A stretch of 64,000 bases of DNA, from NCBI GenBank assembly GCA_964646575.1, contig CAZYFT010000002.1:4459-68458 (forward strand). Direction: 5' to 3'. Source of the DNA: an uncultured Candidatus Saccharibacteria bacterium (lineage in GTDB: Bacteria; Patescibacteriota; Saccharimonadia; CAILAD01; GCA-016700035). The translations under genes and the position numbers were made by a program. Below the pieces are notes generated by a model, which was not told where the DNA came from, ran no database searches, and was given only the letters and a program-made list of their open reading frames with translations. This document shows positions 4,563-49,625 of the stretch, in pieces; position 1 is the stretch's first letter; the number at the start of each line of letters is the position of its first letter.

Positions 4563-4635
4563 GATGCAACCCTTCCTTTTGATAGGTGCTAGGACTGCGC
4601 GGTATCGTACCAGAAAATCAACAGAATGTCATGAG

Positions 4636-4664
4636 TAAAAAAGAAACCCCCACCGAAGTGGGGG
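4636..4664 (-). terminator. intrinsic terminator CCCCCAC-TTCG-GTGGGGG + T-run
   Basis: Hairpin followed by a T-tract on the minus strand, just after the stop of the 4696..6465 gene. Confidence 0.55.
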
Positions 4665-4695
4665 CCGAGAGAGGACCGAAGCCCTCCCCCGAAAA

Positions 4696-6465: not shown

Positions 6466-6531
6466 GATTCCCCTTTCAGGGGTAGTAGGTACTTTCCAGC
6501 GAAACGGTCGCTGGCACCGAGAGGGTCATCC

Positions 6532-6852: not shown

Positions 6853-7911
6853 TTAAACTTTACGTGACTTTTTAACTTTCTTATCTGTAGCGCGTAATGG
6901 CTTAAGTTCTTTTTTTGGCTCCACCCACGTACCACGCAACTTCTGCCAGGCTTCGGCGATGGCGCCGCTTTCATCGAGTGCATGTAAATTTATTATGTCC
7001 GGACGTACTCGCACGAAGGCCTCTGGCTGCAAGTTTTTAACCTGCTTGCTGGTATGCCGAAGATGAATTTTATACCCGCGATCATCCAAACTATCCATCC
7101 ACTTCATGCCCGCTCGATCAATCGTGCGTCCACCTTTGGGCCAAAGATAATTTGGCGCATGTAAGCGCACATATGGGCTCGCCTGCAAAATCTCATACCA
7201 ACGTCTCTCTCCGTACACTGGCACTGCCGTCATCAGCCAATAAATCAGGTGCGGGTCGTTCTCATGCATAATATCGCGCTCAAACATCACACCACGAGTA
7301 GTTAAAAACATCCCTAAGCTAAACTGTCCGGCCTTTTTCTCTTCTGTTTCCAAGAGTTTTGCCCACCCCAGTGTTTTCCAAAGTAGCCCCTTGGCAACAA
7401 ATACCCGTCCCGGCGTAGTTACAATTAGGAGATCTATATCGCTATCCTCATGCACGTTCCCGATAGCGACACTATTTACCACGCACACCGCTTTAATAAA
7501 TGGTAATTTCGCCAAAACTCGCGCTAATTTTCGAGCTCTCCTGATTAAATATTCTCTGTGTGCCTGGGTTTTGTGCAAATCTGCATAGCGCACACCAGGC
7601 AAGCCAAAGTCATCATTCACCCGCGCCAAATCTCCAGCTTCAGCCATTTCGCGCGTCATTGCCTGCACTGCCAGGTGGCTGGCTTTTACAGAGAGCAGCG
7701 CATTGAGACGATCGGTACTCACCGGCAAACCAAACACCGCAAAATATGCCACCATGTCTAAGATGGCCTCGCGGATGGTCTGTTCTTTATCCTGAGCATT
7801 CATATGCTGTTCATCATAACAAACCTGAAGGACTGAAAGAAAAGTAAATAAAAAAGATTTGAGCCGGTACGCTTGTTGGCGCACCGGCTCTGCGTGCCGT
7901 TTTGCAGGCAC
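6853..7911 (-). CDS. Pol-beta-superfamily nucleotidyltransferase-domain protein (function unknown)
   Basis: VNSVAIGNVHEDSDIDLLIV matches the minimal nucleotidyltransferase motif [GN]S-x10-DxD-hhh. An alternative start lies at the internal Met around 7803. Confidence 0.55.
   Translation of the reverse strand: MPAKRHAEPVRQQAYRLKSFLFTFLSVLQVCYDEQHMNAQDKEQTIREAILDMVAYFAVFGLPVSTDRLNALLSVKASHLAVQAMTREMAEAGDLARVNDDFGLPGVRYADLHKTQAHREYLIRRARKLARVLAKLPFIKAVCVVNSVAIGNVHEDSDIDLLIVTTPGRVFVAKGLLWKTLGWAKLLETEEKKAGQFSLGMFLTTRGVMFERDIMHENDPHLIYWLMTAVPVYGERRWYEILQASPYVRLHAPNYLWPKGGRTIDRAGMKWMDSLDDRGYKIHLRHTSKQVKNLQPEAFVRVRPDIINLHALDESGAIAEAWQKLRGTWVEPKKELKPLRATDKKVKKSRKV
7846..7889 (-). terminator. intrinsic terminator AGCCGGTGCGCC-loop-GCGTACCGGCT + T6
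   Basis: Near-perfect 11-bp stem, then CAAATCTTTTTTATTT on the minus strand. Lies at the 3' end of the candidate ncRNA. Confidence 0.5.
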
Positions 7912-10119: not shown

Positions 10120-11187
10120 TTACCAAAAAATATTCTGTTTTAATCGAGAGTAAACCTTATGAAACAACGGCTCTGCCTTCTGCCAACGGCCATACACACC
10201 GGCCTTGAGCGGCAATTCCCAACAGCCAACAAATTGGGTAATTTCCTGATTAAACCCACTCTTAAACTGATACAGCCCATACATATGATGCTCGGGACTC
10301 AACTGATCTTTTGGTGGCACAGCAATGAGGTCATATTCCTTCGCACCGCGCTCGCGAGCCCAGCACATTACTTCATACTGCAATAAATACGGGGCCATTA
10401 AGTTACGCTTAGCTCCACTTGAGCCGCCTTCTTTGTAGTAAGCCTTCTCGCCAAAAATCATGGCGTACTCTGCCGCCAGCACTTCGCCTTCGTGCACGGC
10501 CACAAAAAACTGACCCATTCCGGCCTGCGCAAAGCTCTGCCAGTACGACTTAAATGCATGCTTTGGACGTAAATAAAATCCCGCTCGGCCCTGGGTATCG
10601 CCCATCAGCTTATACATTTCATCAACCATCTCGTCGGTGGCATCACGCTTTTCGATGGTGACACCTTTTTTTGTAGCCAGCCGAATATTATAACGCGTCT
10701 TCTGCTTAAAGCTCGCCAGCAATGCGTCATCATCCTTATTAATATCTACGATGATTGTGGCGCGAAACTGCAAATCATGCACACTCTTCAGGTAGCCTGC
10801 CTGCTTGGGCTTCAGCTCATCATCATAAATCTCGGGCTCTACCATCAGCATAAATGCCTTGGAGTCGTGTTTTTTAATGTATGAAGCCAACTCTTTGGTG
10901 AGCGCCTTAAACGCAGCTAGCTGGGCCTTATCACTTTTGTAGTGCGCGAAGATTCCAGGGCCTTTCGGGATATACCAAATGGTGCCAAAACCTGGTGCAT
11001 TTTTTACTAGCGCCTGAAAGTAGACCCGCTCTTTGCCGCCCTCCCAGGCAAGCCTTTCCGGACGCCAATCATATTGCGCTTTATACTCGCCCCACTCCTG
11101 TGTCTGGTAAATATGGCCGCCATCTGGATTCTCTAAAACCAGCTTATTCCAGGCATCGCGCTCTTCGGGTCCGGCACTTCGTATCAT
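10120..11187 (-). CDS. FemAB-family peptidoglycan interpeptide-bridge aminoacyltransferase
   Basis: FemAB-like length and blocks (GQFFVAVHEGEVLAAEYAM, KEGGSSGAKRNLMAPYLLQYEVMCWA). The start is taken at MIRSAGPEE (11187), with a TATAAT 7 nt upstream, which implies a leaderless or near-leaderless mRNA. Confidence 0.75.
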   Translation of the reverse strand: MIRSAGPEERDAWNKLVLENPDGGHIYQTQEWGEYKAQYDWRPERLAWEGGKERVYFQALVKNAPGFGTIWYIPKGPGIFAHYKSDKAQLAAFKALTKELASYIKKHDSKAFMLMVEPEIYDDELKPKQAGYLKSVHDLQFRATIIVDINKDDDALLASFKQKTRYNIRLATKKGVTIEKRDATDEMVDEMYKLMGDTQGRAGFYLRPKHAFKSYWQSFAQAGMGQFFVAVHEGEVLAAEYAMIFGEKAYYKEGGSSGAKRNLMAPYLLQYEVMCWARERGAKEYDLIAVPPKDQLSPEHHMYGLYQFKSGFNQEITQFVGCWELPLKAGVYGRWQKAEPLFHKVYSRLKQNIFW

Positions 11188-11224
11188 GCCCCGTATTATA
11201 CCGGTTTGACCCCTGTAAGATACA

Positions 11225-11253
11225 TTGACTAAATGATTACTAAGTTGTATTAT
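11225..11253 (+). promoter_or_regulatory. promoter TTGACT-17-TATTAT for the 11285 gene
   Basis: Hexamers and spacing read from the sequence. Divergent from the FemAB gene. Confidence 0.45.
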
Positions 11254-11284
11254 ATGCGAACCTGTACCTACCCAAGAAAGGCTC

Positions 11285-12139
11285 ATGATGACAACTGTCA
11301 GCATGGAAAAGTTCCTGTCCAGCTATCCCACTCCACGAGACGCACTCGACGCGCTCGGTCTCGGCGATCTACTCGATCTGGTCGATACCGTCGATGTGCT
11401 CGAAGACTCTTCCTCTGCAGACAGACTGGCAGAGTCTCTGACTATCGCTAAAAGCGAACATGGCATTCGCGATATGTGGGCCTGGCTGCAACGAAACTTC
11501 GGGCTATCCCACAGCCGTGTCAATCAGATCATCGCTCGCAAGCCAGTTGTACACCTTCAGCATCATCTCCGACACGTCACGGCACCGAACCTACGACCAG
11601 GCTATCGCTTCGATCAGTTGCTTTTCGTCTGGGAAATTCTACGTGATGTACCTGAAGGGTTCCTGTACGGCGATAACTTCCAGATCATGCGCGAACGTTT
11701 CGACTCGACTCTTCAGCAGTACCTGGAAGATGCCGTGACTCCTGAGTTGTTCTGGCTGTGCTTCCACGCCAGCCAAGACGAGCTCCTCCAGGATGTACCG
11801 CGCAAGCAGGCTGCTACACATGCTCGACGTGTTCTCGAAGGATACACAGAGTCACTAGAGAAACTCTGGCTTCTTGATCCGCTACAGCAAGAGCCCACCT
11901 CCATCTGGGACCACACCCTTGAGGACGCAGACACACCGGCAGAGGACGTCGACGACGACTCTGATGTCGCCAATGATCTGGAACCACTCGACGTGAGCCT
12001 GACCGAAGGTCCGTTCGACGATGAAGACGACTCGACAAGTGGCGGACCGATCAGCGCCGAAGCCATGGACAACGAAGATGCCTTCGAAGTGTCTATTCGG
12101 AAGCATTACGGCAAGCAAGCCGCCGATCTGCTCTTCTAG
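11285..12139 (+). CDS. acidic hypothetical protein (high-GC island gene)
   Basis: 284 aa, Asp/Glu-rich C-terminus, no recognised motif. Followed by a strong terminator. Confidence 0.5.
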   Translation: MMTTVSMEKFLSSYPTPRDALDALGLGDLLDLVDTVDVLEDSSSADRLAESLTIAKSEHGIRDMWAWLQRNFGLSHSRVNQIIARKPVVHLQHHLRHVTAPNLRPGYRFDQLLFVWEILRDVPEGFLYGDNFQIMRERFDSTLQQYLEDAVTPELFWLCFHASQDELLQDVPRKQAATHARRVLEGYTESLEKLWLLDPLQQEPTSIWDHTLEDADTPAEDVDDDSDVANDLEPLDVSLTEGPFDDEDDSTSGGPISAEAMDNEDAFEVSIRKHYGKQAADLLF

Positions 12140-12731: not shown

Positions 12732-12760
12732 CCCTCGCCACGTGCGAGGGTCTTTTTATT
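12732..12760 (+). terminator. intrinsic terminator CCCTCGC-CACGT-GCGAGGG + TCTTTTTATT
   Basis: Perfect 7-bp stem and T-run. Confidence 0.6.
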
Positions 12761-13718
12761 CTAAGCCGCGCAACTTACGATAAACCTGATAAGCCCGATA
12801 CTTCGTCTTTTTTATAGGAATATCCCACGTACCGAGCGTTGTAACACGCTCACCACCAAAGCCCTTTTTAAAGGCCGTAATCCCTGCCCACTTATGGTCG
12901 GCTGAATCATCTGGCGCCGCACCCCAAAAATCAAACTTCGTGAGCCCCGCAGCTTTAGCATCTGTAATCATTTTCCAAACTGCCGAAACCGCCACTTTAT
13001 ACTCTCGATTCAGTGCCTGATCATTGCCAGTATGCGCATACGAGCGCGTATCACCCCAGTCATACACCAGACTGACGCTGGCTACTTTTCCGGCCACGGT
13101 CGAAACGTAAAAACTCGCAACTCCTTTACCTATGAGTGTTTCCGCGAGATGGCGGTAATAACTATCCGGATAATTCGTGATATGTGCATGCGCGGCGGTA
13201 TCTGCCATGAGGCGCAAAAAATCGTCCATAGGCGACATATCTTGCACTTGTCGAATGACGATACCGCGTTTTTCGGTAGTATTGACTCGGTTGCGGTGAC
13301 CAGATTGTAAGCCGTGTCGTAAATCTTCTTCCGGCTGGGAAATATCCAGAACAAATGTGTGCTGAGGATCTACCTCGGTGATCTTGCGCGCACCCGCAGC
13401 TCGCAAATCGGCTTCTGTAACTGCACCAATCGGCTCTATGCGGACAAAATCTACTTCCTGCTCCTCAGCCGAAAAAACTATCGAGCGCAGTGCCTCTGCG
13501 GCATTCTTCTGCACCACTGGGCCATACGGCAAAATAAGATAACGCAAGCCCTTTGAGCTACGCATAAAACCCTGCCAAGCCCACTCGCCTGCTGAACTAG
13601 CCCGCACGGCTTCACGCCCAACAATCTCCTGGAATTCTGCCCAGGCGGTACTTTGCAAAATGCCACCGCCTAACTGCGCAATCTGCGTATCCCAAACGGT
13701 TGGCTCAAAGTTAGTCAT
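12756..13718 (-). CDS. FemAB-family aminoacyltransferase (second paralog)
   Basis: Start at MTNFEPTVWD. The C-terminal GITAFKKGFGGERV block is typical of the FemAB family. Confidence 0.75.
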   Translation of the reverse strand: MTNFEPTVWDTQIAQLGGGILQSTAWAEFQEIVGREAVRASSAGEWAWQGFMRSSKGLRYLILPYGPVVQKNAAEALRSIVFSAEEQEVDFVRIEPIGAVTEADLRAAGARKITEVDPQHTFVLDISQPEEDLRHGLQSGHRNRVNTTEKRGIVIRQVQDMSPMDDFLRLMADTAAHAHITNYPDSYYRHLAETLIGKGVASFYVSTVAGKVASVSLVYDWGDTRSYAHTGNDQALNREYKVAVSAVWKMITDAKAAGLTKFDFWGAAPDDSADHKWAGITAFKKGFGGERVTTLGTWDIPIKKTKYRAYQVYRKLRGLE

Positions 13719-13755
13719 GACTCTTATTGTATACCAATCATGGAGCCAGTATGCA

Positions 13756-13784
13756 TTGCTAAAAAAGACATAAAATTGTATAAT
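13756..13784 (+). promoter_or_regulatory. promoter TTGCTA-17-TATAAT with extended TG
   Basis: Read directly. Shares a 15-mer with the promoter at 12175. Confidence 0.5.
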
Positions 13785-13804
13785 ACAGCAATTCTCGCAC
13801 CTCA

Positions 13805-14104
13805 ATGAAAGGTTTCGACATGGGTGGACTCAGTCCCAACCTCACACCGGATGCCGATGCGCCGAACATCTTCTGGACCGACGGCAGCGGCAGACCGATC
13901 GACAAAGGCAACCCAACCAAGAAGGGCTACGTCCCAGGCCGCTACGACCCGTACAACGACCGGTTCGACCCTGATGTCTTCGACACAAGCATGGTGGTAG
14001 CTCTAACGCTCGCCAGCATCGCGCTGGTCGTCGGCATCATCGGCGCCATCGCGGCAGTGCCGATCACCATCGTGCGTCGCCTCCGTCGGAGGAAGTCATC
14101 ATGA
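13805..14104 (+). CDS. small high-GC protein with C-terminal transmembrane helix and basic tail
   Basis: 99 aa. Hydrophobic stretch VVALTLASIALVVGIIGAIAAVPITIV followed by RRLRRRK. Confidence 0.4.
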   Translation: MKGFDMGGLSPNLTPDADAPNIFWTDGSGRPIDKGNPTKKGYVPGRYDPYNDRFDPDVFDTSMVVALTLASIALVVGIIGAIAAVPITIVRRLRRRKSS

Positions 14105-21605: not shown

Positions 21606-21695
21606 GGAGAGGTGTCCGAGTGGTTGAAGGAACTGGTCTTGAAAACCAGCAGGCGTGAAAGCGTCTCGTGGGTTCGAATCCCACCCTCTCCGCCA
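21606..21695 (+). tRNA. tRNA-Ser (anticodon TGA)
   Basis: GGAGAGG acceptor stem, long variable arm, CTTGAAA anticodon loop and encoded CCA. The same CGTATAATCT -10 lies upstream as for the first tRNA-Ser. Confidence 0.9.
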
Positions 21696-21740
21696 TTTCA
21701 ACAAATTATTGCCAGATTATATTCCTTTAATAAATCAAAA

Positions 21741-22190
21741 ATGAGCCACACCCGGAAGAACATTAAAAAGTCAGATGCGATAAGTGTTTATTTTCGAGAT
21801 GCATGGACATGCCGATACTGCGACCACGCCGTCTTTTTTAGTCCATCTTTACTAATTTTAGAACAAATGAATCCTGGTCACGGATACTATCACGCCCACA
21901 ATAAGCGCGAAGCGATGATAGATGTCTTCATGAAGAGATGGGCATCAATCGATCATATAACACCAGTCGCTAGCGGTGGCGTAAACTCTTTAGATAATTA
22001 TATGACCGCTTGCTGGGATTGTAATAATCGTTTTAATTCTCAGCATCCGAAAAATAAAAAAATTAAACCTATCAACATTATAAATAAGGATATGCAGTGG
22101 GACGGACTATCAGGAATATATGTAAAATATGGTCTTGACCAAACTTGGAAAAGCTTGATTCTTGCTCATCAAAACATAAATCATAACTAG
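21741..22190 (+). CDS. HNH endonuclease (AT-rich, adjacent to tRNA)
   Basis: CRYCDH...DHITPVASGG...N...CWDCNNRFN gives the HNH/zinc-finger signature. GC is about 38%, below its surroundings. The start is at MSHTRKN, just after tRNA-Ser. Confidence 0.7.
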   Translation: MSHTRKNIKKSDAISVYFRDAWTCRYCDHAVFFSPSLLILEQMNPGHGYYHAHNKREAMIDVFMKRWASIDHITPVASGGVNSLDNYMTACWDCNNRFNSQHPKNKKIKPINIINKDMQWDGLSGIYVKYGLDQTWKSLILAHQNINHN

Positions 22191-23177: not shown

Positions 23178-23241
23178 GCCTTTACGAATCAGGAGAAATT
23201 AGGTAAAATAACCTCTGCTTTTTGTACCTTACATTTTGTGC

Positions 23242-23318
23242 GCGCTCGTAGCTCAGTTGGATAGAGCGTTGGTTTGCGGTACCAGAGGTCGCAGGTTCGA
23301 ATCCTGCCGAGCGCACCA
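23242..23318 (+). tRNA. tRNA-Arg-like (anticodon reads GCG)
   Basis: Canonical cloverleaf with A20, C35, G36, discriminator A and encoded CCA. Anticodon loop TTGCGGT. A GCG anticodon is unusual for Arg, where ACG is expected. Confidence 0.7.
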
Positions 23319-23399
23319 TAATTATTTTCTTGTGAATTCGGGAGGGGAATGATCCTTTCTCGATCACACCAGAAAAGTCTGGTAAGTTCATGAGATCCC

Positions 23400-23865
23400 G
23401 CGTGTCCCAAATAGAGGAAGTGAGAGTTAACCGTACTCACGAAAGCGTAAGTCAGCCTTATAGAGTTGAACGACGACAGCCCTATAAGACGTCAAAGAAC
23501 TTCGCTGCACAGAGGATCGGCAGCTGTATCTGCCCTGCTGGGCTCGTAGAAGCTCGCGGCGGATGCAGCCGTTTCGCACCTTAATACATGCAACAATTCT
23601 GGGATCAGCAACGCCCAGACGTTCGGCGACAAGGCCACCCCAGCTTCGGCTTAGGTGTGCTCACAGGGATCGGGGATCCCCTGCATGTCGAACGAATAAC
23701 CCCGGCATTCCTGTGATGCACACCACTGACACCTGCGGATTAGATACCCGCGCCGTCACACAAGGTGGTAAGGAGGAGTATCGTCCTCTGTTGGTAACCC
23801 AGCAACCGCGGAAGTACCAGCGAAACGTAGAGATTGGGGTGCCAGGACACCCCAATCTCGACCAA
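23400..23865 (+). other. GC-rich noncoding segment carrying scrambled 16S-rRNA-like sequence blocks
   Basis: Contains GGATTAGATACCC (universal 16S ~785), CCGTCACAC (~1400), CAGCAACCGCGGAAGTAC (vs CAGCAGCCGCGGTAATAC ~519), CATGTCGAACG (vs CATGCAAGTCGAACG ~55) and GCCCAGAC (~340), in non-native order. No credible ORF. Confidence 0.3.
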
Positions 23866-23937
23866 GCGCTCGTAGCTCAGTGGTAGAGGTTCAGCCTGAA
23901 AAACTGACGGTCGCAGGTTCGAATCCTGCCGAGCGCT
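23866..23937 (+). tRNA. tRNA-like gene, Phe-type anticodon loop CTGAAAA (GAA); possible pseudo-tRNA
   Basis: 5' 16 nt and 3' 28 nt are identical to the tRNA at 23242. The D-stem G-G and anticodon-stem C-A mismatches, T20, discriminator T and absent CCA argue against a standard tRNA-Phe. Confidence 0.45.
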
Positions 23938-23941
23938 CGAT

Positions 23942-24014
23942 ACCCCCGTAGCTCAGTGGCAGAGCGTCCGGTTCTTAACTCGGAAGGTTGCAAGATCAAT
24001 ACTTGCCGGGGGTG
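23942..24014 (+). tRNA. non-canonical tRNA-like gene (Lys-type CTT in an 8-nt anticodon loop)
   Basis: Acceptor ACCCCCG/CGGGGGT, a good D-arm, T-loop ATCAATA, and anticodon loop TTCTTAAC (8 nt) between the TCCGG/TCGGA stems. Confidence 0.4.
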
Positions 24015-24040
24015 CAAGGCAAATGTGAGCCTTAATCACA

Positions 24041-24111
24041 CGGGCTATAGCTCAGAGGTAGAGCTGCCAGCTGGGTGCTGGTGGTCACAGGTTCGAGTCC
24101 TGTTAGCCCGA
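24041..24111 (+). tRNA. tRNA-Pro (anticodon GGG)
   Basis: 71-nt cloverleaf with CGGGCTA acceptor, GCCAG/CTGGT anticodon stem, loop CTGGGTG, T-loop TTCGAGT, discriminator A and no encoded CCA. Confidence 0.65.
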
Positions 24112-24195
24112 CAACTGACTTCCACCCTCGTTGTTTTTGTAGTAGCGCCGCCAACGCTGCTCTCTGCTCGCAGAAAACAAGGAACGGGGAGTCAG

Positions 24196-24273
24196 GCGGG
24201 GGTAGCTCATGGGAGAGCAACTTGGGTGAAAGCCCGAGGAGGTACGTGGGTTCAAATCCCACCCCCTGCACCA
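24196..24273 (+). tRNA. tRNA-Ala-like gene (G3:U70) with aberrant anticodon arm
   Basis: GCGGGGG/CCCCTGC acceptor with a G3-T70 wobble, GTGGGTTCAAATCCCAC T-arm and ACCA end. The anticodon region CTTGGGTGAAAGCCCGAG cannot form a standard 5-bp/7-nt arm and contains no TGC/GGC/CGC. Confidence 0.45.
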
Positions 24274-24289
24274 CCACACCTTCAGTCGG

Positions 24290-24664
24290 CGAGGTAAGTG
24301 GACCACTGCCTCTAGAGAGGCCTCCATTGGACCCCTCTCGGACCCAGTGGTGCATGCCTTAAAATCAGACTAAGTCACGTGTAAGCGTGGCGAAGACAGT
24401 CTGTGGCATGCTCGGGTAGCACGTCTCTCACACAGACGGAGGCCCCGAAAGACAAGCCGACGCTCGGTAAAATCCGGACACCACGAGACGCAAAACGTAC
24501 ATGGAAGACACATAACGCAAGTCCGGTGCCTCATGCCAGCTTCGGCAAAAATGAGGCTAAGCTAGTTGAAGCATGCGACGGCATGCGCTGCATCACACCG
24601 AAGCGTGGCGATAGAAGCTCGCCTCGCTGAAAGCCTTCGGGCCGTAAAAGTTGGTGCGGCATCC
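24290..24664 (+). ncRNA. unidentified structured RNA or leader ending in the strong terminator at 24665
   Basis: About 375 nt with no ORF. Internal direct repeat TCAC..G.AAGCGTGGCGA.AGA at 24378 and 24592, and multiple hairpins (GTCTGTG/CACAGAC, CCTCAT/ATGAGG). It lies between the tRNA array and a membrane-protein gene. Confidence 0.3.
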
Positions 24665-24705
24665 GCCGGTCGGGGAGCGATCCCCGGCCGGCACTTCTTT
24701 TTTTT
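24665..24705 (+). terminator. strong intrinsic terminator GCCGGTCGGGGA-GCGA-TCCCCGGCCGGC + T9
   Basis: 11-12-bp GC stem, GNRA loop and a long T-run. Confidence 0.8.
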
Positions 24706-24771
24706 CACAGTTTGCCCTCAGTCAACAGAATTAGTTATAGTGGCAATAAGATTTTAGTAAAAGGAAAAGCT

Positions 24772-25455: not shown

Positions 25456-25524
25456 ACAGACTCTCCTAAACCTAGAAAATATGTAAAAATCAGGTATAAT
25501 ATTCCAGTTCGACCTCAGCTATCT

Positions 25525-29593: not shown

Positions 29594-29971
29594 TTAAAAC
29601 TGCGCGAGTACGAAGTTTACAATTGCGTAGCCGAGGAGTGCCACAACAATACCAACCACCGCATAAAGAATGGTGTCTTTAGCAGCCTGGGTGTTTTTAG
29701 AATCTCCACCGGAAAGAACATAACGCAAGCCGCCAACTACCAGCATAATAACTGCAGCAACGCCTACGATGTAGAGTAGTATGTTCGTAACACGCCCCAC
29801 AGCCTGCGGGACTGTTAGGGGACTAGCCGGACCACACTCTACGCCACTGTTCAGACCACCAGCTGGATCACCACACGCAGCCAAAGCACGCCCTGGTAGC
29901 TGTAATACTGCGGAGACAGCAGATGCGCCCAAGACCGATACCTTTAAAACTGAGTTGCTAGTAAACTTCAC
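29594..29971 (-). CDS. VirB2/TrbC-like pilin-type small membrane protein (paralog 1)
   Basis: 125 aa: signal peptide, hydrophobic helix, short polar loop (GGDSKNTQAAKD), and a second hydrophobic helix to the C-terminus. This is the TrbC/VirB2 topology. Confidence 0.55.
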   Translation of the reverse strand: MKFTSNSVLKVSVLGASAVSAVLQLPGRALAACGDPAGGLNSGVECGPASPLTVPQAVGRVTNILLYIVGVAAVIMLVVGGLRYVLSGGDSKNTQAAKDTILYAVVGIVVALLGYAIVNFVLAQF

Positions 29972-29986
29972 GAAAACCTAGGATTT

Positions 29987-30364
29987 TTACGCTGCAAACT
30001 GACCGAGTACAAAGTTAACAATCGCATAGGCAAGAAGGGCTACAACGATACCGATAACCGCATAAAGAATGGTGTCTTTAGCAGCCTGGGTGTTTTGTGA
30101 GCTACCACCAGAGAAGATGTAGCGGAAACCACCAACGATAAGCATAATCACAGCAACTACACCGATCACAAAGAGCATAGTGTTGGTGATTGTCTGAATG
30201 TTTGCCACGAGATCAGTCTGCTGATCGTCGCCCTTAGCGGCACTAGCGCCTTCGTTAATTCCGCCTACTGCGGCTGAAGCGTGTCCCGCAAGTGAAGCTG
30301 CCACTACGGTATTTCCAGCCAACACGAGTGAACCTTTTTTAAGTAAATCTTTTGCATTACGCAT
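29987..30364 (-). CDS. VirB2/TrbC-like pilin-type small membrane protein (paralog 2)
   Basis: 125 aa. The C-terminal 45 aa are near-identical to paralog 1 (NTQAAKDTILYAVIGIVVALLAYAIVNFVLGQF), including an identical 38-nt DNA stretch. Confidence 0.55.
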   Translation of the reverse strand: MRNAKDLLKKGSLVLAGNTVVAASLAGHASAAVGGINEGASAAKGDDQQTDLVANIQTITNTMLFVIGVVAVIMLIVGGFRYIFSGGSSQNTQAAKDTILYAVIGIVVALLAYAIVNFVLGQFAA

Positions 30365-30507
30365 GTTGTTTATTGTCTCCTTGACTACTAATGATAGCTA
30401 AGTGGGCGAGTGCACACTACTAGGCACATTCTACTGCAAGGAGAGATGTATCAGCAAGCATTATGGGCAAAATTCTTATGCTTATTTTATAAACAGAAGT
30501 AGGTGGC

Positions 30508-31068
30508 CTAGCGGAACTGTGCACTAACAAAGCTAATAATTGCTGTACCCAAAAGCGCCACGCCAACACCAATCACCGCATACAAAATTGCATCTTTTGC
30601 GGATTTTGTCTTGCCCGGGTCTCCAGCTGAAACCACGTACAAGATTCCAGAGACTATTACCATAATTACAGAAGCTGCACCAATAACCCACATGAAGAGC
30701 TGAATGCCCGAATTGACCACGCTCTGAACGTTTGTGGCCCCAGCAACAACTGGCAAGAAAAAATCTACTAACGCTCGAGCGATAATAGCAATTACAAAAC
30801 CGATTACCGTGTAAATAATCGACTGAATAGCCATCTTGGTTCGATCAGGACGACCGGCAGAAATTACAAACATAAAACCTGAGTACACAATCATGACAAC
30901 GCCAACTACACCAACCACCCAAAGCAAGAAAGTGAAAAGATTATTCACCAACTGGGGAAGTGTGGCTGGGCCATTATTAAATTGTGCCGGCTTATTGGTA
31001 GGGAGGGGAAGATTAGTTGCCTCCGCAGCCACAAAAAGCTTAAGACCAAGTTGATGCAAAACGCCCAT
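30508..31068 (-). CDS. tandem-duplicated pilin-like membrane protein (two helix-loop-helix units)
   Basis: 186 aa with two repeats of the hydrophobic-loop-hydrophobic unit (PDRTKMAIQSIIYTVIGFVIAII / PGKTKSAKDAILYAVIGVGVALLG). Confidence 0.5.
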   Translation of the reverse strand: MGVLHQLGLKLFVAAEATNLPLPTNKPAQFNNGPATLPQLVNNLFTFLLWVVGVVGVVMIVYSGFMFVISAGRPDRTKMAIQSIIYTVIGFVIAIIARALVDFFLPVVAGATNVQSVVNSGIQLFMWVIGAASVIMVIVSGILYVVSAGDPGKTKSAKDAILYAVIGVGVALLGTAIISFVSAQFR

Positions 31069-31072
31069 AATA

Positions 31073-31933
31073 TTACCCCGTTATCACTCTACCAATTAAG
31101 TTAAATATCAAACTCACCGAAGCAACTCCAAGTAATCCAATTACCGCATACGTAATAATCTTGCGAGCAGACTGAATAGCTTGTGGGTTTCCGGCAGCGG
31201 TCATCATTCTGATACCTCCCACAATTATCATCGTTACAGCCAATGCGCCTCCAAGGAACTGTATGTACTGCCATACCGCAACAATAAGCTCGAGGATGGT
31301 GTTCTGGTCAAAGTTATTTAGGTCTACACCCAAGAAGCGTCCACCACCAGTAACGCCGATAAGGTCTAGCGTTACACGAGCAGCAAAAAAGAGCGCAATG
31401 CTAGAAGCAGCTAACGTGATGCGTTTCTTACCAGCTTTCAACGCCTCTGGGGAGGCTCCACCGGTAATAACTTGCACCATGCCCAGGCCGATCATAATTG
31501 CAAAAACAAGCACCCCAATATTTAAAATGTAGTTTGTAAGGTTCTCTACAATAGATTCAATTGCAGTTTGATTATTGCCTCCAGTGCAAAGTGTAGAAAC
31601 GAAGCCGCTACTAATAATTTGCCCATCAGCCTTAATATCATTACAAGTGCCTTTAACGGACTGGGGGTTGCTGAGCCTCTCATTTTCGGCAGCCGTACTT
31701 GTACCATTGCCAATTGGCTCACTTCGAGCGGGACCTTTAGTTCCTGGAGGAAGATTCTCAACACATAACGTCCCCCGTGTTGTGTCTTGCCGAGTTGTAC
31801 CAGCAACACCTCCCGTAAGCGTACAGGGTTTACCGGCATCATTTTGTTGATCGGCATAAGCAACCGGAAGGGTATATACATGTAGACTAATAACCAAAAG
31901 AATAAGGAATAAGTACGCGAGGCGGCTTTTCAT
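31073..31933 (-). CDS. secreted domain fused to two pilin-like helix-loop-helix units
   Basis: 286 aa: signal peptide, ~150-aa Cys-containing extracellular region, then two units ending QAIQSARKIITYAVIGLLGVASV. Confidence 0.5.
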   Translation of the reverse strand: MKSRLAYLFLILLVISLHVYTLPVAYADQQNDAGKPCTLTGGVAGTTRQDTTRGTLCVENLPPGTKGPARSEPIGNGTSTAAENERLSNPQSVKGTCNDIKADGQIISSGFVSTLCTGGNNQTAIESIVENLTNYILNIGVLVFAIMIGLGMVQVITGGASPEALKAGKKRITLAASSIALFFAARVTLDLIGVTGGGRFLGVDLNNFDQNTILELIVAVWQYIQFLGGALAVTMIIVGGIRMMTAAGNPQAIQSARKIITYAVIGLLGVASVSLIFNLIGRVITG

Positions 31934-31975
31934 GTCCCTTATTATAAGCGGGTTTGGTATAATTTCGGTAGGGTA

Positions 31976-34900
31976 ATGAATATTCTTTCCAAAAAACTGA
32001 ATATATTTCAGCAGGGGGCGCTGTTTGGCGTCCTGCTTATTCTTTCATTTTTGACATTTTCACAAAAAGCCGCTGCCGCCTCTGCTCCGGGCAAATGGCT
32101 GGATCCCCAAGGTGGACAGTGCCAATGGCTAAATGCAGCGCAGATTAGGTGTGCACCGGTTGCCGGGGCAGCTGTTGCAAACTATGCAGATTACTATTTT
32201 GACCCGCAATCCACCCTCGCTGCTGGGCACGCTGTATACCGAGTAAATGGAAATGATGAAAATCTTTCAGATTGGGGATACATCCATATCCTCAGCGATT
32301 ACGAAGTAGCCCAAATAAGTAACAGTCCAACAGATGCCGTTGGTGGCTACGAGCAAAAACCCATCCAAGATTCTGATAATTTCGCCAATACATCTGATGA
32401 AGAAATTAATGGGCGTCTAGTTTGTGGTCCGGGTAATACATCTGCAGATTGTACGTTGGGCTTTACCAAGAACACAACTCAGTCAAAAAACCCTCTTTCT
32501 GAAAAAGACTACCTCGCCGCACTTACTATTGTCTCCAATGGAGGAAGTGAGTTCTTTAATGGAAAAGCCGCGGAAGAAGACTGCGCCGAGGATGCTGGCT
32601 CATTGGGTTTTGTGTTGTGTCCAATTTTAAAAACAACACGTAATGCTGTGACAGCCCTCATCGGGGACGGGACTGGCAAGGGCTTCTTGGTGGAGTTACT
32701 CACTATCCGACCACTAAGCTCCACAAACACTCCAGAACTTTACAATGGCTGGCAAGCTGTGAGAAATATCGCTCTCGGGCTGTACATATTAGTGTTTGTT
32801 TTAATTATCTTTGGTAATGGAATCGGTTACGACCCCTACACAATTAAGCGAGCATTACCTCGATTGGCAGCCGGCGTTGTCTTAACATTCGCCTCATGGT
32901 GGATCATGCAGACACTTGTAGATCTTTCGAACCTTGTGGGTAATGTTATTCCCGCCTTTGTTGCTCAAATTTCCGGAAATGCCGGAATTGCCGACTATGC
33001 AATCGATCTGAATCCTGCCCTTGCCTTAAGTTCCGTAATCCTGCTCATTGTGGTTGCGTTTGTCGCCCTAGGCGCCTTGCTGGTTGGAATTGCTGGTTTA
33101 ATTATGCGCATAGTTATAATTTATGCGCTTGTCCTCCTAGCGCCCGTTGCATTCATAGCCTGGGTATTACCAAACACTGAAAGCATCTTTAAAAAATGGT
33201 GGAAAAACCTCGTTAAGGTACTCATGATGTTTCCAATAGTTACAGGAATGCTATCACTCTCCTTGTTCTTCCAGACTGTTCTGTTAAACACTCAAACCGA
33301 TGCAGCTGGAAATAGTAATGGTGCCGGCGGGGCAGCAGCGAACTCGGTAACCGGAATAGTAGGTATGCTTGCACCACTCATCGCAATCATCATGATTCCT
33401 AAGACCTTTAAGTGGGGTGGAGAGGCTTTCGCTGCGGCGGCTGGATACATGGCCGGAAAGGCCAGTGGGGCTGCCGACAAAGTTGCAAACGCGCCAAAAA
33501 CTGTTGGTGGCAAAGCTGCCGGGAGCGCAAAAGAACGAGCACTTGCAAGTGACCGTGTAGCTCGTATGACTGGCGGCATGGCTTCCAACAGGCTAGGTCG
33601 GCTGGCTGGCGGAAAAGCTGCTATGCGAGCTAGTGGTAGAGCCAGAGGTAGGGTTGTGAGTGAGGCCGAAAGTCTAACGAAGAATATGACAAACGACCAG
33701 CTCGAGAAAATTGCTGCAACCGGGACCACAGAAGAAAGAATCGCAGCAATTGGTCAGCTCGCAAAGCGAGGTGACCGTAAAAAACTTGCTAGCCTTGGAT
33801 CAAAAGATGGAAAAACCGCAAAGGCCTACAATGAAGCAAGTAGTAGATATGCTGGTGATTTTGGAAAGAATGCAGACCTTCGAAGGATTGGTGGCAAGCT
33901 AACTAATACGAGCGACCTGTCGGTCGAAGATGCAGCAAACCTCAACCAAGACGCGCTGGCAGTTGGCCTGGCAACTGGATCTATTTCCTACGCAACAGCC
34001 AAGTCCATGTATGAAAGCGATAAGGTTAAAGCATCATTGTCTCCTCAAAAAATGCACGACCTCACAACTTATCTAAGCGGGGCAGGCTACAAGGACTCTT
34101 CAGGTAAGCCTATTCAGGTGCAGGGTAAGAATAACCGTTCAGACACCGATACTGTGATCGGAACAAGAACTACCGCTGATGGTCGAGGTCAGAAGATTAC
34201 AGTAAATGGATCCAGCTCACTAAATACGCAACTCAAGGCAACTGCCGTACAGGCAAAAGTTCAATACGATGATCATATGAATGGAGTTGTTGACGCCAGC
34301 GGGAATCGAGTACCGATGAATGTTAACCCCGAATCTGTAGCTCTAGATCCTAACACTACAAGCATTGAAACACCTCCTGTAGTTAAGGCTGCACCGAGTG
34401 GCTCTATACCCTACAGGGCAGGTAAGGCTGTTGGGCAGGTACGCAGCCAAATGGGCCAAGGAGGTTACGTGGCAGTGCCCGGAGGAAACACCACCAATAC
34501 TGGGGCCCCAACTCAGCAGGCAAGCCCAGCGCCACCACCGCCGCCACCACCAAGTGGAGGGGCACCAACTTACACCACACCGGCCGGAGCACCTAGGTAT
34601 ACGACGAGCGGTACGCCTGTACCTCCACCTCCAACCGGTAACGTTCCAGTTTGGAGCAACCCTACACCGCCACCGCCAAGTGGAACCTCAGGCAGCACAA
34701 CACCACCTCCATACACGGGTCCAGCGGCGCCATGGCAGCCAGCCCCAAGTTCACAAACCCCACCTCCACCACCAAGTGGAGGGGCGCCTACCAGCACGAG
34801 CGGTGGAGGCACAGTCATAAACAATGTCACCAACGAAAATTCAACGACAAATAACAACTCAACTACCAACAACGTAAAAACCGTTCTCAACAACAACGGC

Positions 34901-35188
34901 ATACCGAGTTCGATTGCGCTTGGTGCAGCCACGCAGCTTGGAAGTGCCAAAAATCGCTTCGGAGCAGGATCAGCTGAACACGACGGCCTAGCCGGTATCG
35001 AGAGTAAGCTCAATGATCTGGGTCGTATGATTCAGTCCGGCTCACTCAGCCAAACTCGATTGCGTGAAAACATCCGTGACATCCATCGTGATATCGATGA
35101 TCTCCCGCCCGGAGCACATGACCAGCAAGATAACCTACGTGGCGTACTCAATAACATCGAACGCAATGCCACCGACGACGAGGCATAG
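31976..35188 (+). CDS. VirB6/TrbL-like polytopic T4SS channel protein with long Pro-rich C-terminal extension
   Basis: 1070 aa: signal peptide, ~250-aa exodomain, five or six TM helices (res ~260-480), then K/A-rich repeats and PPPPPPSGGAPT-type Pro-rich repeats. This is the architecture of Gram-positive VirB6 homologs. Confidence 0.5.
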   Translation: MNILSKKLNIFQQGALFGVLLILSFLTFSQKAAAASAPGKWLDPQGGQCQWLNAAQIRCAPVAGAAVANYADYYFDPQSTLAAGHAVYRVNGNDENLSDWGYIHILSDYEVAQISNSPTDAVGGYEQKPIQDSDNFANTSDEEINGRLVCGPGNTSADCTLGFTKNTTQSKNPLSEKDYLAALTIVSNGGSEFFNGKAAEEDCAEDAGSLGFVLCPILKTTRNAVTALIGDGTGKGFLVELLTIRPLSSTNTPELYNGWQAVRNIALGLYILVFVLIIFGNGIGYDPYTIKRALPRLAAGVVLTFASWWIMQTLVDLSNLVGNVIPAFVAQISGNAGIADYAIDLNPALALSSVILLIVVAFVALGALLVGIAGLIMRIVIIYALVLLAPVAFIAWVLPNTESIFKKWWKNLVKVLMMFPIVTGMLSLSLFFQTVLLNTQTDAAGNSNGAGGAAANSVTGIVGMLAPLIAIIMIPKTFKWGGEAFAAAAGYMAGKASGAADKVANAPKTVGGKAAGSAKERALASDRVARMTGGMASNRLGRLAGGKAAMRASGRARGRVVSEAESLTKNMTNDQLEKIAATGTTEERIAAIGQLAKRGDRKKLASLGSKDGKTAKAYNEASSRYAGDFGKNADLRRIGGKLTNTSDLSVEDAANLNQDALAVGLATGSISYATAKSMYESDKVKASLSPQKMHDLTTYLSGAGYKDSSGKPIQVQGKNNRSDTDTVIGTRTTADGRGQKITVNGSSSLNTQLKATAVQAKVQYDDHMNGVVDASGNRVPMNVNPESVALDPNTTSIETPPVVKAAPSGSIPYRAGKAVGQVRSQMGQGGYVAVPGGNTTNTGAPTQQASPAPPPPPPPSGGAPTYTTPAGAPRYTTSGTPVPPPPTGNVPVWSNPTPPPPSGTSGSTTPPPYTGPAAPWQPAPSSQTPPPPPSGGAPTSTSGGGTVINNVTNENSTTNNNSTTNNVKTVLNNNGIPSSIALGAATQLGSAKNRFGAGSAEHDGLAGIESKLNDLGRMIQSGSLSQTRLRENIRDIHRDIDDLPPGAHDQQDNLRGVLNNIERNATDDEA

Positions 35189-35190
35189 TT

Positions 35191-36030
35191 ATGGGGCAGT
35201 ATAAAGTCCCTCAAAACGTAGAGAGTGAAGATAGACTCCTAGGCCCCTTAACGATGAAGCAATTCATCTACGCTATCATTGGTCTTGGGTGGGGATTCCT
35301 TATTTGGCGTATTCTCTCACCGGGAGGCACGGCTGCAATCCCCATTATGCTTCTGCTCATTGTGCCGGTTTCTGGTTTTATGCTTCTCTTGGCATTCGGC
35401 AAAAGGGAAGAGCAGAGTTTTGAGAATTATCTCATTGCCCTCATTCGTTTTAGTGTCGTACCGCGCAAGCGCATTTGGCTGAAAGACGACTTTAAGGGTG
35501 AAGTGATTATTGATGCACCACCTCCGCCAAAACCCACAACTCCAACTAAAGAAGATATTGCGCATGTCCACAGCCGCTTACAACAACTCTCACTAGTTGT
35601 AGACACGCGTGGACACGCCAAGACTCCAGATGTTCAGCTGGCCGACCAAACAAATCGGGCTGCGGAATTTTCTCAGCGCGTATTTACACCTCCGGAACTC
35701 CAAAAACCTATCTTAGAAGGGGGAGTGCAAGAACAAGATGACGTATTAGCAACAACAGAAGCAACAGCCGCTCAAGCGCAAAAAGTTGATGAGCTACTAC
35801 AAAACCAAGAGTACTCCATACGCGAAGAGGCCATGAAAAAGATGACTCAGGCCGTCGAAAATCCCGAAACTCAGGCCGCCGAAACCCCTACACAAACCTC
35901 CCAGCCACCAGCTGATAATGCTATACTGAAAAAGGTTATGGATGCACCTCACCTAAGTGTTGCTCAGGTAGCCCAAGTGGCTAATCGTGGGCAGCTCGCA
36001 CAAGGTCAGGAAATCCAAATCCAACAATAA
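35191..36030 (+). CDS. VirB3/PrgI-like small membrane protein with extended C-terminus
   Basis: Two N-terminal TM helices (FIYAIIGLGWGFLIW... IPIMLLLIVPVSGFMLLLAF) and a position immediately upstream of virB4. Confidence 0.4.
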   Translation: MGQYKVPQNVESEDRLLGPLTMKQFIYAIIGLGWGFLIWRILSPGGTAAIPIMLLLIVPVSGFMLLLAFGKREEQSFENYLIALIRFSVVPRKRIWLKDDFKGEVIIDAPPPPKPTTPTKEDIAHVHSRLQQLSLVVDTRGHAKTPDVQLADQTNRAAEFSQRVFTPPELQKPILEGGVQEQDDVLATTEATAAQAQKVDELLQNQEYSIREEAMKKMTQAVENPETQAAETPTQTSQPPADNAILKKVMDAPHLSVAQVAQVANRGQLAQGQEIQIQQ

Positions 36031-36177
36031 AACGTATAAAAACCAAGACAGAAGACCCTCTAAATAACAAAATCTTTGAAGGTTGCTGTCTTTTTTTGTT
36101 ATGATGATATATTCGTCACTCAACAGCAATACAGTGATGAGGGTGTTCAAAAGTAAAAGAGGGAGAGAGAAGTTCGC

Positions 36178-37098
36178 ATGCCACAGGAGGCTGCCAAAAC
36201 TCCACAACAAATTGAATATGAGAAATCGATCACTCCTACTAAGGAGTCGAAAGATCAGCGCACCAGCACGCAAAACCACCTGATGTTTACCGAAATTAAG
36301 GATGGCATCGTTGTAATGCGTGATGGCTCTTTGCGTATGGTCGTACTTGCGAGTGCGCTCAACTTTGACCTTAAGAGCCCGCAAGAACAGGATGCGATCG
36401 AATATGCCTACCAAGGATTTTTAAATGGTCTGCATTTTCCGATTCAAATTATCGTACGCTCTCGCAAACTCGAACTTGATGGCTACCTGGAAAATCTTGA
36501 AGTCTTACAGGCAAATCAAGAAAATCCACTTTTAGCCGGACTAATGGAAGATTATATTTACAATATTCGTGGGCTTTTGGAGCAAGTAAACATCATGAAT
36601 AAAGAGTTTTATGTCGTTGTGCCATACTACTTGGATGTCGCGTCAAAAAAGAAAGATAATGCCGGATTTAAGCTCGCCAGCCTCTTTAAAACTAACACCG
36701 ACACTATGCAAACCACGGAGATGTTTGAGCAACGCAAACGTGATCTTATTCAGCGCACTAATCTTGTTGCGCAAGGGTTGGCACAGCTTGGTATCCGGGC
36801 AGCCGTACTCTCAACCCAAGAAATTACCGAGCTCTTCTATACTGCCTACAACCAGGAAGAAGCTATTAATCAAAACTTAGTGGACATCGAACAAATGACT
36901 ACGCCAGTTGTAGAACGCGGCGATGCAGATCCAGAGCCATATACTCAGTCTTCCTACACCGAGCCAGTGCCAGATGATTTATATTCTGCGGCCGCTCAAG
37001 CCCAACAACCCGCAGCCCCAACTGAGGGAACTACTCCAGTTCAACAGCCTGCAGCTCAGCAACCACCACAAAATCCATTGATTGGAGGAGGGGTATAA
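36178..37098 (+). CDS. T4SS-associated hypothetical protein (306 aa) translationally coupled to virB4
   Basis: TAATG stop-start overlap with virB4, different reading frame, Gln/Pro/Ala-rich tail. No catalytic motif. Confidence 0.5.
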   Translation: MPQEAAKTPQQIEYEKSITPTKESKDQRTSTQNHLMFTEIKDGIVVMRDGSLRMVVLASALNFDLKSPQEQDAIEYAYQGFLNGLHFPIQIIVRSRKLELDGYLENLEVLQANQENPLLAGLMEDYIYNIRGLLEQVNIMNKEFYVVVPYYLDVASKKKDNAGFKLASLFKTNTDTMQTTEMFEQRKRDLIQRTNLVAQGLAQLGIRAAVLSTQEITELFYTAYNQEEAINQNLVDIEQMTTPVVERGDADPEPYTQSSYTEPVPDDLYSAAAQAQQPAAPTEGTTPVQQPAAQQPPQNPLIGGGV

Positions 37099-42421: not shown

Positions 42422-42424
42422 TCT

Positions 42425-44335: not shown

Positions 44336-44349
44336 AAAGAAAGGGAACT

Positions 44350-46468: not shown

Positions 46469-46476
46469 CGATCCTC

Positions 46477-49316: not shown

Positions 49317-49357
49317 ACTCACCACTCCTTCACATAGCTTTATCTGTATACTACTAG

Positions 49358-49432: not shown

Positions 49433-49476
49433 ATGGGGTTGAAATATTGGCAGAAAATAGGTATACTAGTGCAGTT

Positions 49477-49611: not shown

Positions 49612-49625
49612 AAGGTAGGCGACCC

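Follow-up and report, generated by a model that had tools for sequence, protein, structure and literature searches.

Predicted non-decoding tRNA mimics and structured RNAs downstream of a tRNA-Arg gene in a family-level clade of Patescibacteria

Molecules shaped like tRNAs are known in several settings outside ordinary decoding. The tRNA-like domain of transfer-messenger RNA (tmRNA, SsrA) has an Ala-type acceptor with G3:U70, A73 and a T arm, and it has no anticodon. YrlA (RF02553), a bacterial Y RNA, is a non-decoding RNA with a tRNA-like acceptor/T/D module, which serves as a substrate of tRNA-processing enzymes. In mitochondrial tRNA punctuation and in the mascRNA of MALAT1, tRNA shapes lie at the borders of longer RNAs, whose ends are defined by RNase P and RNase Z, and mimics of this type need only the top half of the tRNA. 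The E. coli RNA 3'ETS-leuZ derives from the transcribed spacer of a tRNA operon and is freed by tRNA-processing enzymes, while the Fem-type tRNAs (e.g., tRNA-Gly of S. aureus) and tRNA-Other of B. cereus share the idea of a tRNA that is charged yet kept from ribosomal decoding. Lastly, Acidobacteria contain polycistrons of irregular tRNAs, some of which are chargeable but not used in translation (Mukai et al., PMC5389517). All of these resemble, in one respect or another, the locus described here, which lies in a 64,000-nucleotide stretch of DNA (hereafter, the window) from an uncultured Candidatus Saccharibacteria bacterium (assembly GCA_964646575.1, contig CAZYFT010000002.1, positions 4,459 to 68,458). 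The locus starts with a tRNA-Arg(GCG) gene, which is followed by four tRNA-like modules, t2 to t5, set among two structured RNAs, called X and Y. We favor, with moderate confidence, the explanation that t2-t5 mimic tRNAs but do not decode, and that their top half is retained to provide processing handles and possibly an alanine acceptor.

Of the nine tRNA genes that ARAGORN reported for the window, five are + strand genes lying at 23242-24273. The same five were found with the Rfam tRNA model, and because they score 43-70 bits, all above the gathering score of 29 bits, they are far beyond chance; the cluster of five tRNA-like genes in ~1 kb, noticed in the preliminary description, is thus real. 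All five lie in a gene-free stretch, 23178-24711, and in none of the metagenome contigs did any gene caller place a gene there. The portion after tRNA-Arg (23319-24711, ~1.4 kb), which contains t2-t5, is GC-rich: sliding-window values are 56-60% over ~23500-24700 and roughly 41-54% in the flanks, with 53% for RNA X, 57% for RNA Y and 48% for the whole window. The individual features are collected in Table 1.

This ~1.4-kb stretch is confined to one family-level clade, known from ~8 metagenome lineages. To place it, 27 related Patescibacteria/Saccharibacteria loci were retrieved via valyl-tRNA synthetase (ValRS) and scanned for tRNAs. A 77-nt tRNA-Arg(gcg) gene occurs beside the same Ser tRNAs in 17 of the 27, so that its GCG anticodon, earlier thought unusual, is not so for this lineage. 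Irregular tRNAs were found in none of the 27 loci, and the 1.4 kb downstream of the window's tRNA-Arg has no sequence counterpart in any of them; L007 (ValRS 63% identical), the nearest outgroup, has an AT-rich spacer and an unrelated gene after tRNA-Arg. Contigs bearing the locus were then fetched from other metagenomes by means of its flanking proteins, a 179-aa protein upstream and a UPF0259 membrane protein downstream. Several metagenomes contain contigs identical or near-identical to the window, and a gene-free gap of 1.2-1.6 kb with tRNA-like genes follows tRNA-Arg(GCG) in ~8 lineages: the window group (with L092, L093 and L094), L242, L087/L088, L090, L244, L096, L098-L100 and L251-L253. 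Their identity with the window is 78-91% for ValRS, 72-94% for MscL and 51-82% for the 179-aa protein; over all the clade members covered, the range for the flanking protein is 51-92%. Metagenome and viral scans for extra copies of TLS-b (the module t5) with a loose pattern (T arm plus start of RNA Y) gave no new members among the matches listed, which were ordinary Ser, Met and Leu tRNAs.

The first gene of the array is a genuine, ordinary Arg tRNA of the lineage. It is 91-100% identical within the clade, and it is the only one of the five to combine a 7-nt anticodon loop with U33, a purine at position 37 and an anticodon that its orthologues keep. CCA is encoded by all native tRNAs of the window (three Ser, Arg and Asn); t5 has CCA as well, and the corresponding positions read CGA, CAA and CAA in t2, t3 and t4.

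The labels given to the other four are unstable. Depending on the lineage, ARAGORN calls them Phe, Gly, Lys, Val, Ser, Cys, Pro, Ile or "???" (with 2- or 4-nt anticodons), and one and the same orthologue may be reported as Pro, Lys, Ser, Cys or "???". In the window two of the five genes have 8-nt loops, so the suspicion that the loops are not all of the standard 7 nt proved right.

Two of the modules are universal. TLS-a (t4) and TLS-b (t5) are both present in 10/10 sequences, and their orthologues were split by hand into cloverleaf segments (10 sequences per module). The copies are 66-84% identical to those of the window, as against 40-55% for the spacer between them and ~48% for shuffled sequence. 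The "anticodon" loops of the orthologues are 3-16 nt long, unrelated in sequence and different in each lineage. Because the modules are this well kept next to a spacer at random level, and because the loops differ, the acceptor, D and T arms are under purifying selection, from which the anticodon loop is free. These data answer two suggestions made earlier from the letters alone: compensatory double substitutions in the stems, together with the gap in identity between modules and spacer, speak against pseudo-tRNAs, and unrelated loops of such varied length in ~8 lineages speak against frameshift or nonstandard decoders.

TLS-a has C1-G72, G2-C71, A73 and C74 in all ten sequences, and C1-G72, G2-C71 and A73 make up the acceptor signature of bacterial tRNA-Pro, a tRNA that normally has G37. 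Around these fixed positions the stems show compensatory changes, at 3-70, 4-69, 5-68, 6-67, 7-66, 49-65, 50-64 and 13-22. In the window the loop of t4 is CUGGGUG, or UGGGU if C32 and G38 pair; position 37 is U, and the gene ends in CAA, not CCA. This module had not been flagged in the preliminary description, but it is also aberrant, and its orthologues have unrelated loops. A Pro-like loop remains in the window (CUGGGUG) and in L244 (UCUGGGA); these remnants of a Pro anticodon indicate the descent of TLS-a from a real tRNA-Pro.

TLS-b has a different signature: all ten sequences have G3:U70 and C74, nine have A73, and there are double changes at 1-72 (GC/CG), 2-71 (CG/AU/GC), 6-67, 11-24 and 51-63. 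In the window, t5 combines G3:U70, A73 and an encoded CCA with an arm that forms a 7-bp helix, CUUGGGU/GCCCGAG, capped by a GAAA tetraloop; since the arm folds in this way, t5 has no anticodon. The earlier remark on this gene was right about the Ala pair G3:U70, but the anticodon arm, described there as unable to fold canonically, does fold. In the orthologues the arm is a stem of 5-7 bp with unrelated sequences, and the loops are GAAA, CAUA, CCAUCA, CAUC, CACC, CAAUC, CUUG, UGUU and UUCG. GG is kept in the D loop and UUCRAAU in the T loop, consistent with an L-shaped fold. The D loop has its own conserved short form, AUNGGA, and that of canonical bacterial tRNA-Ala is longer (AGCUGGGA). CCA is encoded in the window and in L092, and 8/10 orthologues are without it. 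Alanyl-tRNA synthetase (AlaRS) reads the acceptor stem, not the anticodon. As G3:U70 is invariant in every lineage, and as processing does not explain this, TLS-b is probably still an AlaRS substrate, which would make it a candidate for alanylation.

The remaining two modules are variable. The first 16 nt of t2 are identical to those of tRNA-Arg, and so are the 28 nt before the discriminator (GGTCGCAGGTTCGAATCCTGCCGAGCGC); the sharing of both ends by the genes at 23242 and 23866, already pointed out, is exact. In other words, t2 has the acceptor and T arms of tRNA-Arg, together with a CUGAAAA loop and U20. The stem mismatches reported for this copy are G10.G25 and C31.A39; the discriminator is U73, and the missing CCA is replaced by CGA. 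The module is restricted to the closest strains of the window and is absent from L087, L088, L090, L242, L098, L244, L096 and L251. In L093, whose flanks are 91% identical, the t2 site holds a module with another acceptor stem, GCACCUG/CAGGUGC, and the loop CACCA. Because a different module occupies the same site there, the identity with tRNA-Arg is better explained by gene conversion. The proposed swap of anticodon arms after a duplication is thus only partly right: the shared ends on which it was based are confirmed, but t2 is best read as a pre-existing module that was gene-converted by the tRNA-Arg gene 550 nt upstream. It is the least aberrant module, and it may retain some ability to be charged or to decode.

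As for t3, it has an A1-U72/G73 end, a T loop AUCAAUA, no CCA and an 8-nt loop, UUCUUAAC; the last feature, which the preliminary description had given for the gene at 23942, agrees with the ARAGORN call of ctta in an 8-nt loop. The loops of its positional orthologues are ACACC in L096, CUAAAUA in L244 and CUGAAAA in L251, and four lineages are without the module. The 8-nt loop is identical in the window, L092 and L093, but the DNA of these strains is 91-95% identical, too close for the shared loop to be informative on function.

The sequence between the modules is also structured. RNA X has a minimum free energy (MFE) z-score of -6.0 against shuffled sequence, and RNA Y one of -5.3. RNA X is alignable across the nearer lineages; it opens with a conserved 5' hairpin, continues as a multi-helix core and closes with a 3' hairpin, after which comes GACCAA. 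The RNAalifold consensus of seven sequences has 126 pairs, 95% of them paired, and 24 of the consensus pairs show double changes; column shuffles give 11.7+-2.3 such pairs (0/500 reach 24) and slid controls give 5-10. RNA Y has a conserved core and varies in size: it is reduced to ~120 nt in L242 and is absent in L251. Neither RNA matched any Rfam family, whether the cutoff was the gathering threshold, E<=1 or E<=10. A hand comparison with the conserved motifs of RNase P was unconvincing.

Two small hairpins recall anticodon loops. The spacer between TLS-a and TLS-b contains a hairpin with the 7-nt loop YYGCCAA in 8/10 sequences, on stems that covary (GCG/CGC, GGCG/CGCC, AGUG/CACU, GGUG/CACC, GGAUG/CAUCC); the window version, CCGCCAA, resembles the anticodon loop of tRNA-Gly(GCC) with C33, and the rest of this spacer is at random-level identity. 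Within RNA Y, at 24422-24438, lies a second hairpin with the 7-nt loop CUCACAC (24427-24433), which resembles the anticodon loop of Val(CAC); the loop NUCACAC is found on covarying 5-bp stems in 8/10 sequences.

In two lineages the junction of tRNA-Arg(GCG) and RNA X carries an insert (L095:2561-2913; L251:1596-1760, also L252:30-195). The insert is ~150 nt long in L251, and in L095 further extra sequence comes after it. In both, its end repeats the last ~20-27 nt of tRNA-Arg in direct orientation, AATCCTGCCGAGCGC[A/G]CCAT, and the two inserts have a motif in common, GGATTCGAAACC..AGGTTCGATA. They look like the footprint of a small element that would have integrated at the 3' end of tRNA-Arg.

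From its anatomy, the region 23181-24702 appears to be one transcription unit. The predicted promoter is the only promoter-like site on the + strand before the terminator; between 23209 and 24665 no internal + strand promoter or terminator was predicted, and new promoter-like sites occur after the terminator, for the next gene. L087, L088 and L090 share the 51 nt preceding tRNA-Arg at 88-92% identity, and the terminator is conserved in L087, L088, L090 and L092, with an analogous hairpin and T-run in L242, L244 and L251. The predicted order (promoter, Arg, X, t2, t3, t4, hairpin, t5, Y, terminator) fits the layout of a long RNA punctuated by tRNAs.

What, then, would these modules be kept for? 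Starting from the gene calls, the confinement to one clade, the conserved and covarying arms, the lost anticodon constraint and the structure of RNA X, the locus can be pictured as a unit that opens with a real tRNA and continues as a ~1.4-kb non-coding RNA made of exapted tRNA genes. The four downstream modules would have stopped decoding, and their anticodon arms would have drifted into arbitrary hairpins, while selection would retain the top half, i.e., the acceptor stem, the D arm, the T arm, the discriminator and C74. The top half is the part recognised by RNase P, by the 3'-end processing enzymes, by the CCA-adding enzyme and by AlaRS. The modules would then act as processing and end-protecting handles: the precursor would be cut by RNase P and 3'-end enzymes, with the release of stable pieces, namely tRNA-Arg, RNA X, the small Gly-like hairpin, RNA Y and the tRNA mimics. 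In this mechanism, the most economical one, the modules would be kept because the tRNA-processing machinery recognises exactly the conserved parts. Among the options listed in the preliminary description, the one that survives is that of tRNA-derived non-coding RNA, as part of a ~1.45-kb structured locus that had not been seen at that stage.

Several points weigh against this explanation. A pure processing role leaves the invariant G3:U70 of TLS-b, and C1-G72/G2-C71 of TLS-a, unexplained while the neighboring pairs covary, and it does not account for two to four modules in tandem. Most TLS-b orthologues do not encode CCA and the real tRNAs do, so that charging would need a CCA-adding enzyme. 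Then, t2 with its CUGAAAA loop comes close to canonical, as does the module in the t3 position of L251, so that some modules may still decode. Finally, the comparison covers ~8 lineages of a single shallow clade, and the consensus structure of RNA X was taken from the same seven-sequence alignment as the covariation count. A 352-aa open reading frame (ORF) at 6853-7911 of the window (- strand) has a weak NTP_transf_2 domain and is a possible tRNA nucleotidyltransferase candidate; it is of interest because charging of the CCA-less modules would need CCA addition.

A less probable explanation than the favored one, but the strongest of the rivals, is that the mimics are themselves functional, with TLS-b as an anticodon-less alanine acceptor, charged by AlaRS for a reaction independent of mRNA (a FemAB cross-bridge, or a tmRNA- or RqcH-like rescue or tailing), where the missing anticodon would keep it out of normal translation. 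The fixation of G3:U70 (10/10), A73 (9/10) and C74 (10/10) while 1-72, 2-71 and 6-67 covary speaks for such a molecule. The CCA encoded in the window and L092, the D-loop GG and T-loop UUCRAAU that fit an L-shape, the indifference of AlaRS to the anticodon and the alignment of the Rfam tmRNA model to both ends of TLS-b are likewise in line with it, and two FemAB-family genes are present in the window (~10120-11304 and 12756-13805, - strand). The tie to FemAB, however, consists solely in their presence in the same 64 kb, and the known Fem donors are complete tRNAs with anticodons. Moreover, 8/10 orthologues lack an encoded CCA, no messenger-like part, pseudoknots or ARAGORN tmRNA call was found, and TLS-a has a Pro-type end although bacterial prolyl-tRNA synthetase (ProRS) needs G35/G36, which most orthologues are missing. 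It is improbable, in our view, that the mimics and the Gly- and Val-like hairpins are decoys or regulators that titrate or sense synthetases, modification enzymes, tRNA-targeting toxins or T-box-like leaders. The 7-nt loops YYGCCAA and NUCACAC, conserved on covarying stems, and the top halves kept without anticodons would suit this role; the ValRS gene lies 3.4 kb upstream, and the irregular tRNAs of the Acidobacteria polycistrons, charged but unused in translation, are linked to toxin-antitoxin systems (PMC5389517). Yet neither a toxin or antitoxin nor a T-box element was recognised adjacent to the locus, the Val-like hairpin of RNA Y is missing in L242 and L251, and the resemblance of the loops could be inherited from an ancestral tRNA array or be a coincidence.

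A further alternative is that the locus is the decaying remnant of an acquired tRNA array or of an element integrated at the 3' end of tRNA-Arg, with the conservation due to recent ancestry and gene conversion. The extra DNA does begin exactly at the tRNA-Arg 3' end, short inserts bounded by a repeat of that end occur in L095 and L251, t2 and t3 are gained and lost between lineages, and the Pro-like CUGGG of TLS-a in the window and L244 suggests slow decay from a real tRNA-Pro. The 28-nt copy of the 3' part of tRNA-Arg in t2 also points to gene conversion, yet lineages without t2 still have the locus. Decay is hard to reconcile with compensatory double changes in many stems, with modules well conserved beside randomised spacers and with the conserved structure of RNA X. 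The short D loop of TLS-b, AUNGGA, unlike that of tRNA-Ala, would argue for vertical descent over repeated conversion, and there are no integrase or other element genes. We regard a remnant as having only a small chance of being correct. By far the least credible alternative, largely refuted by comparison with the relatives, is that the modules are working decoders, with t3 (CUUA) and t5 (GAAA) as quadruplet or +1 frameshift suppressors and t2 and t4 as unusual Phe and Pro isoacceptors. ARAGORN does give 4-nt anticodons in 8-nt loops, the loop of t3 is identical in the window, L092 and L093, and t2 has a canonical CUGAAAA loop and U20. However, those three strains are too close to inform on t3, and the 8-nt loops are limited to close strains of the window, with other lengths and sequences in L096, L244, L251, L087, L090 and L098. 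Across the orthologues the loops run from 3 to 16 nt with no common anticodon, the "loop" of t5 closes into a GAAA tetraloop on a 7-bp helix, and a CACCA loop sits at the t2 position in L093.

Table 1. Features of the tRNA-like locus in window coordinates
Feature	Position	Strand	Basis and remarks
Sigma-70-like promoter (predicted), TTTACG-17-TAAAAT	23181-23209	+	Upstream of tRNA-Arg
tRNA-Arg(gcg)	23242-23318	+	ARAGORN; Rfam tRNA 70.1 bits; encoded CCA
RNA X, 547 nt	23319-23865	+	MFE z-score, alignments, covariation
t2, called tRNA-Phe(gaa)	23866-23938	+	ARAGORN; Rfam tRNA 63.5 bits
t3, called tRNA-???(ctta, 8-nt loop)	23942-24015	+	ARAGORN; Rfam tRNA 53.8 bits
t4 (TLS-a), called tRNA-Pro(ggg)	24041-24112	+	ARAGORN; Rfam tRNA 57.0 bits
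Closed spacer helix with Gly-like hairpin	24113-24195	+	Loop CCGCCAA at 24148-24154
t5 (TLS-b), called tRNA-???(gaaa, 8-nt loop)	24196-24273	+	ARAGORN; Rfam tRNA 43.2 bits
RNA Y, ~390 nt	24274-24664	+	MFE z-score, alignment; Val-like hairpin inside
Intrinsic terminator (predicted)	24665-24702	+	12-bp GC-rich hairpin, then T run

The surroundings of the locus are those of a bacterial chromosome. The window encodes ValRS, a TPR protein, MazG, a methyltransferase-like DNA-binding protein, an HNH nuclease, MscL, PurN, ComF, HSP20, the two FemAB proteins, TsaD and GroEL, and it also includes a recF-dnaN-dnaA/yidC origin region and a type IV secretion cluster. By ValRS, the nearest species representative is a Patescibacteria metagenome-assembled genome (63% identity), followed by many Candidatus Saccharibacteria (39-47%). 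A phage origin was considered and rejected: the only matches of megablast and blastn among 50,697 phage records were generic tRNA segments, a PHROGs search returned nothing phage-specific except an HNH nuclease, and two motifs of RNA X had 0 matches in viral contigs.

Other details of the neighborhood vary between lineages. A gene for tRNA-Arg(CCG) lies directly upstream of tRNA-Ser(CGA) in L090 (4579-4655), L096 (4241-4317) and L098 (9326-9402); in the window (25456-25524) and in L087, Ser(CGA) stands alone, and tRNA-Arg(CCG) is missing from that position in the lineage of the window. A conserved gene for a membrane protein of ~60 aa follows the terminator of the RNA locus in L244 (2621-2803), L251 (2801-2980) and L096 (3910-4092) and is absent from that position in the window. 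The HNH endonuclease ORF (21606-22190) begins within or right after tRNA-Ser(TGA) (21606-21695); L087 and L088 have a PDDEXK_5 nuclease gene on the opposite strand in its place, so that the site beside this tRNA is a variable nuclease slot.

Further away, recF, dnaN and dnaA (- strand) and yidC (+ strand) occupy 45416-51041. The GC skew changes sign at ~46-50 kb, where these genes lie, and for this reason the chromosomal replication origin is probably inside the window. The cluster resembling a type IV secretion system (29594-45138) comprises pilin genes (two at 30508-31933 and PF18895 at ~29594-29971), a PrgI-family protein, a TraG/VirB4-like ATPase, a 1138-aa protein with a C-terminal VanY domain, a lysozyme/M23/GDSL protein and a 1070-aa ORF (31976-35188) for which neither Pfam nor PHROGs gave a match. 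At 4001-6500 the GC content reaches a local peak of 0.607, with neighboring bins at ~0.5; the peak coincides with a 589-aa ORF (4696-6465, - strand, no Pfam match) and a long overlapping antisense ORF, 5131-6366.

The locus matters for practical as well as biological reasons. Since tRNA finders report its modules as Phe, Pro, Lys, Cys, Ser or undetermined, they would distort tRNA inventories, and the wrong labels could give rise to mistaken reports of quadruplet decoding or reassigned codons in genomes of the candidate phyla radiation (CPR). As a biological case, it would be a clear natural example of tRNA genes exapted as non-decoding modules, with features of the synthetase and processing type under selection, and 1.4 kb of conserved non-coding DNA is an expensive possession in the tiny CPR genomes. 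A TLS-b that is in fact charged would give bacteria a second kind of anticodon-less alanine acceptor, next to tmRNA. A bolder idea, which we consider rather doubtful, is that the clade has built a new RNA system from an old tRNA array, with an AlaRS-chargeable TLS-b, a Pro-type TLS-a, free-standing mimics of Gly and Val anticodon loops and the RNAs X and Y, serving a tRNA-dependent function independent of mRNA. If this were true, such a function might be alanine transfer, with the cell wall or stalled nascent chains as the target, or the sensing or decoying of tRNA-binding factors.

How does the locus stand next to the systems described at the outset? In the literature searched for tRNA-like RNAs in Saccharibacteria, Patescibacteria or CPR, nothing relevant was found. 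The Rfam tmRNA model matches only the ends of TLS-b, at 30.2 bits (gathering 47), with the whole interior deleted. Unlike tmRNA, TLS-b is a self-contained cloverleaf of ~75 nt, whose halves are joined by a hairpin of ~18 nt, with no messenger-like reading frame or pseudoknots. The combination of t5 and RNA Y as a tmRNA was also considered and rejected: no tmRNA call of either the permuted or the standard form was obtained, and t5 by itself makes a complete cloverleaf. YrlA scores 33.3 bits against a gathering score of 69, with a match across the t2/t3 junction; no Ro/Rsr-binding helix is evident, and no rsr gene is present among the annotated ORFs of the window.

Mitochondrial punctuation and mascRNA belong to eukaryotes or organelles, whereas here a bacterial chromosome carries 2-4 tandem modules with synthetase identity features, and the processing is predicted. 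The Acidobacteria polycistrons are likewise clusters of non-canonical tRNAs transcribed together (as predicted here), but their tRNAs have 8/4 or G-1 architectures, keep their anticodon loops and are linked to toxin-antitoxin systems (PMC5389517); the present modules, which are interspersed with large structured RNAs, show the normal 7/5 architecture without a conserved anticodon loop. With the Fem-type tRNAs, TLS-b has in common the synthetase identity elements that such a donor would need (G3:U70 in 10/10, A73 in 9/10), and FemAB homologues are present in the window, but the known examples keep a normal anticodon arm. RNAs of the 3'ETS-leuZ type are short, unstructured sponges, while RNAs X and Y are 400-550 nt long and highly structured. 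None of the families compared fits the locus. Top-half tRNA mimicry is already known; here the mimics accompany a pair of structured RNAs that have neither an Rfam match nor a description in the literature searched.

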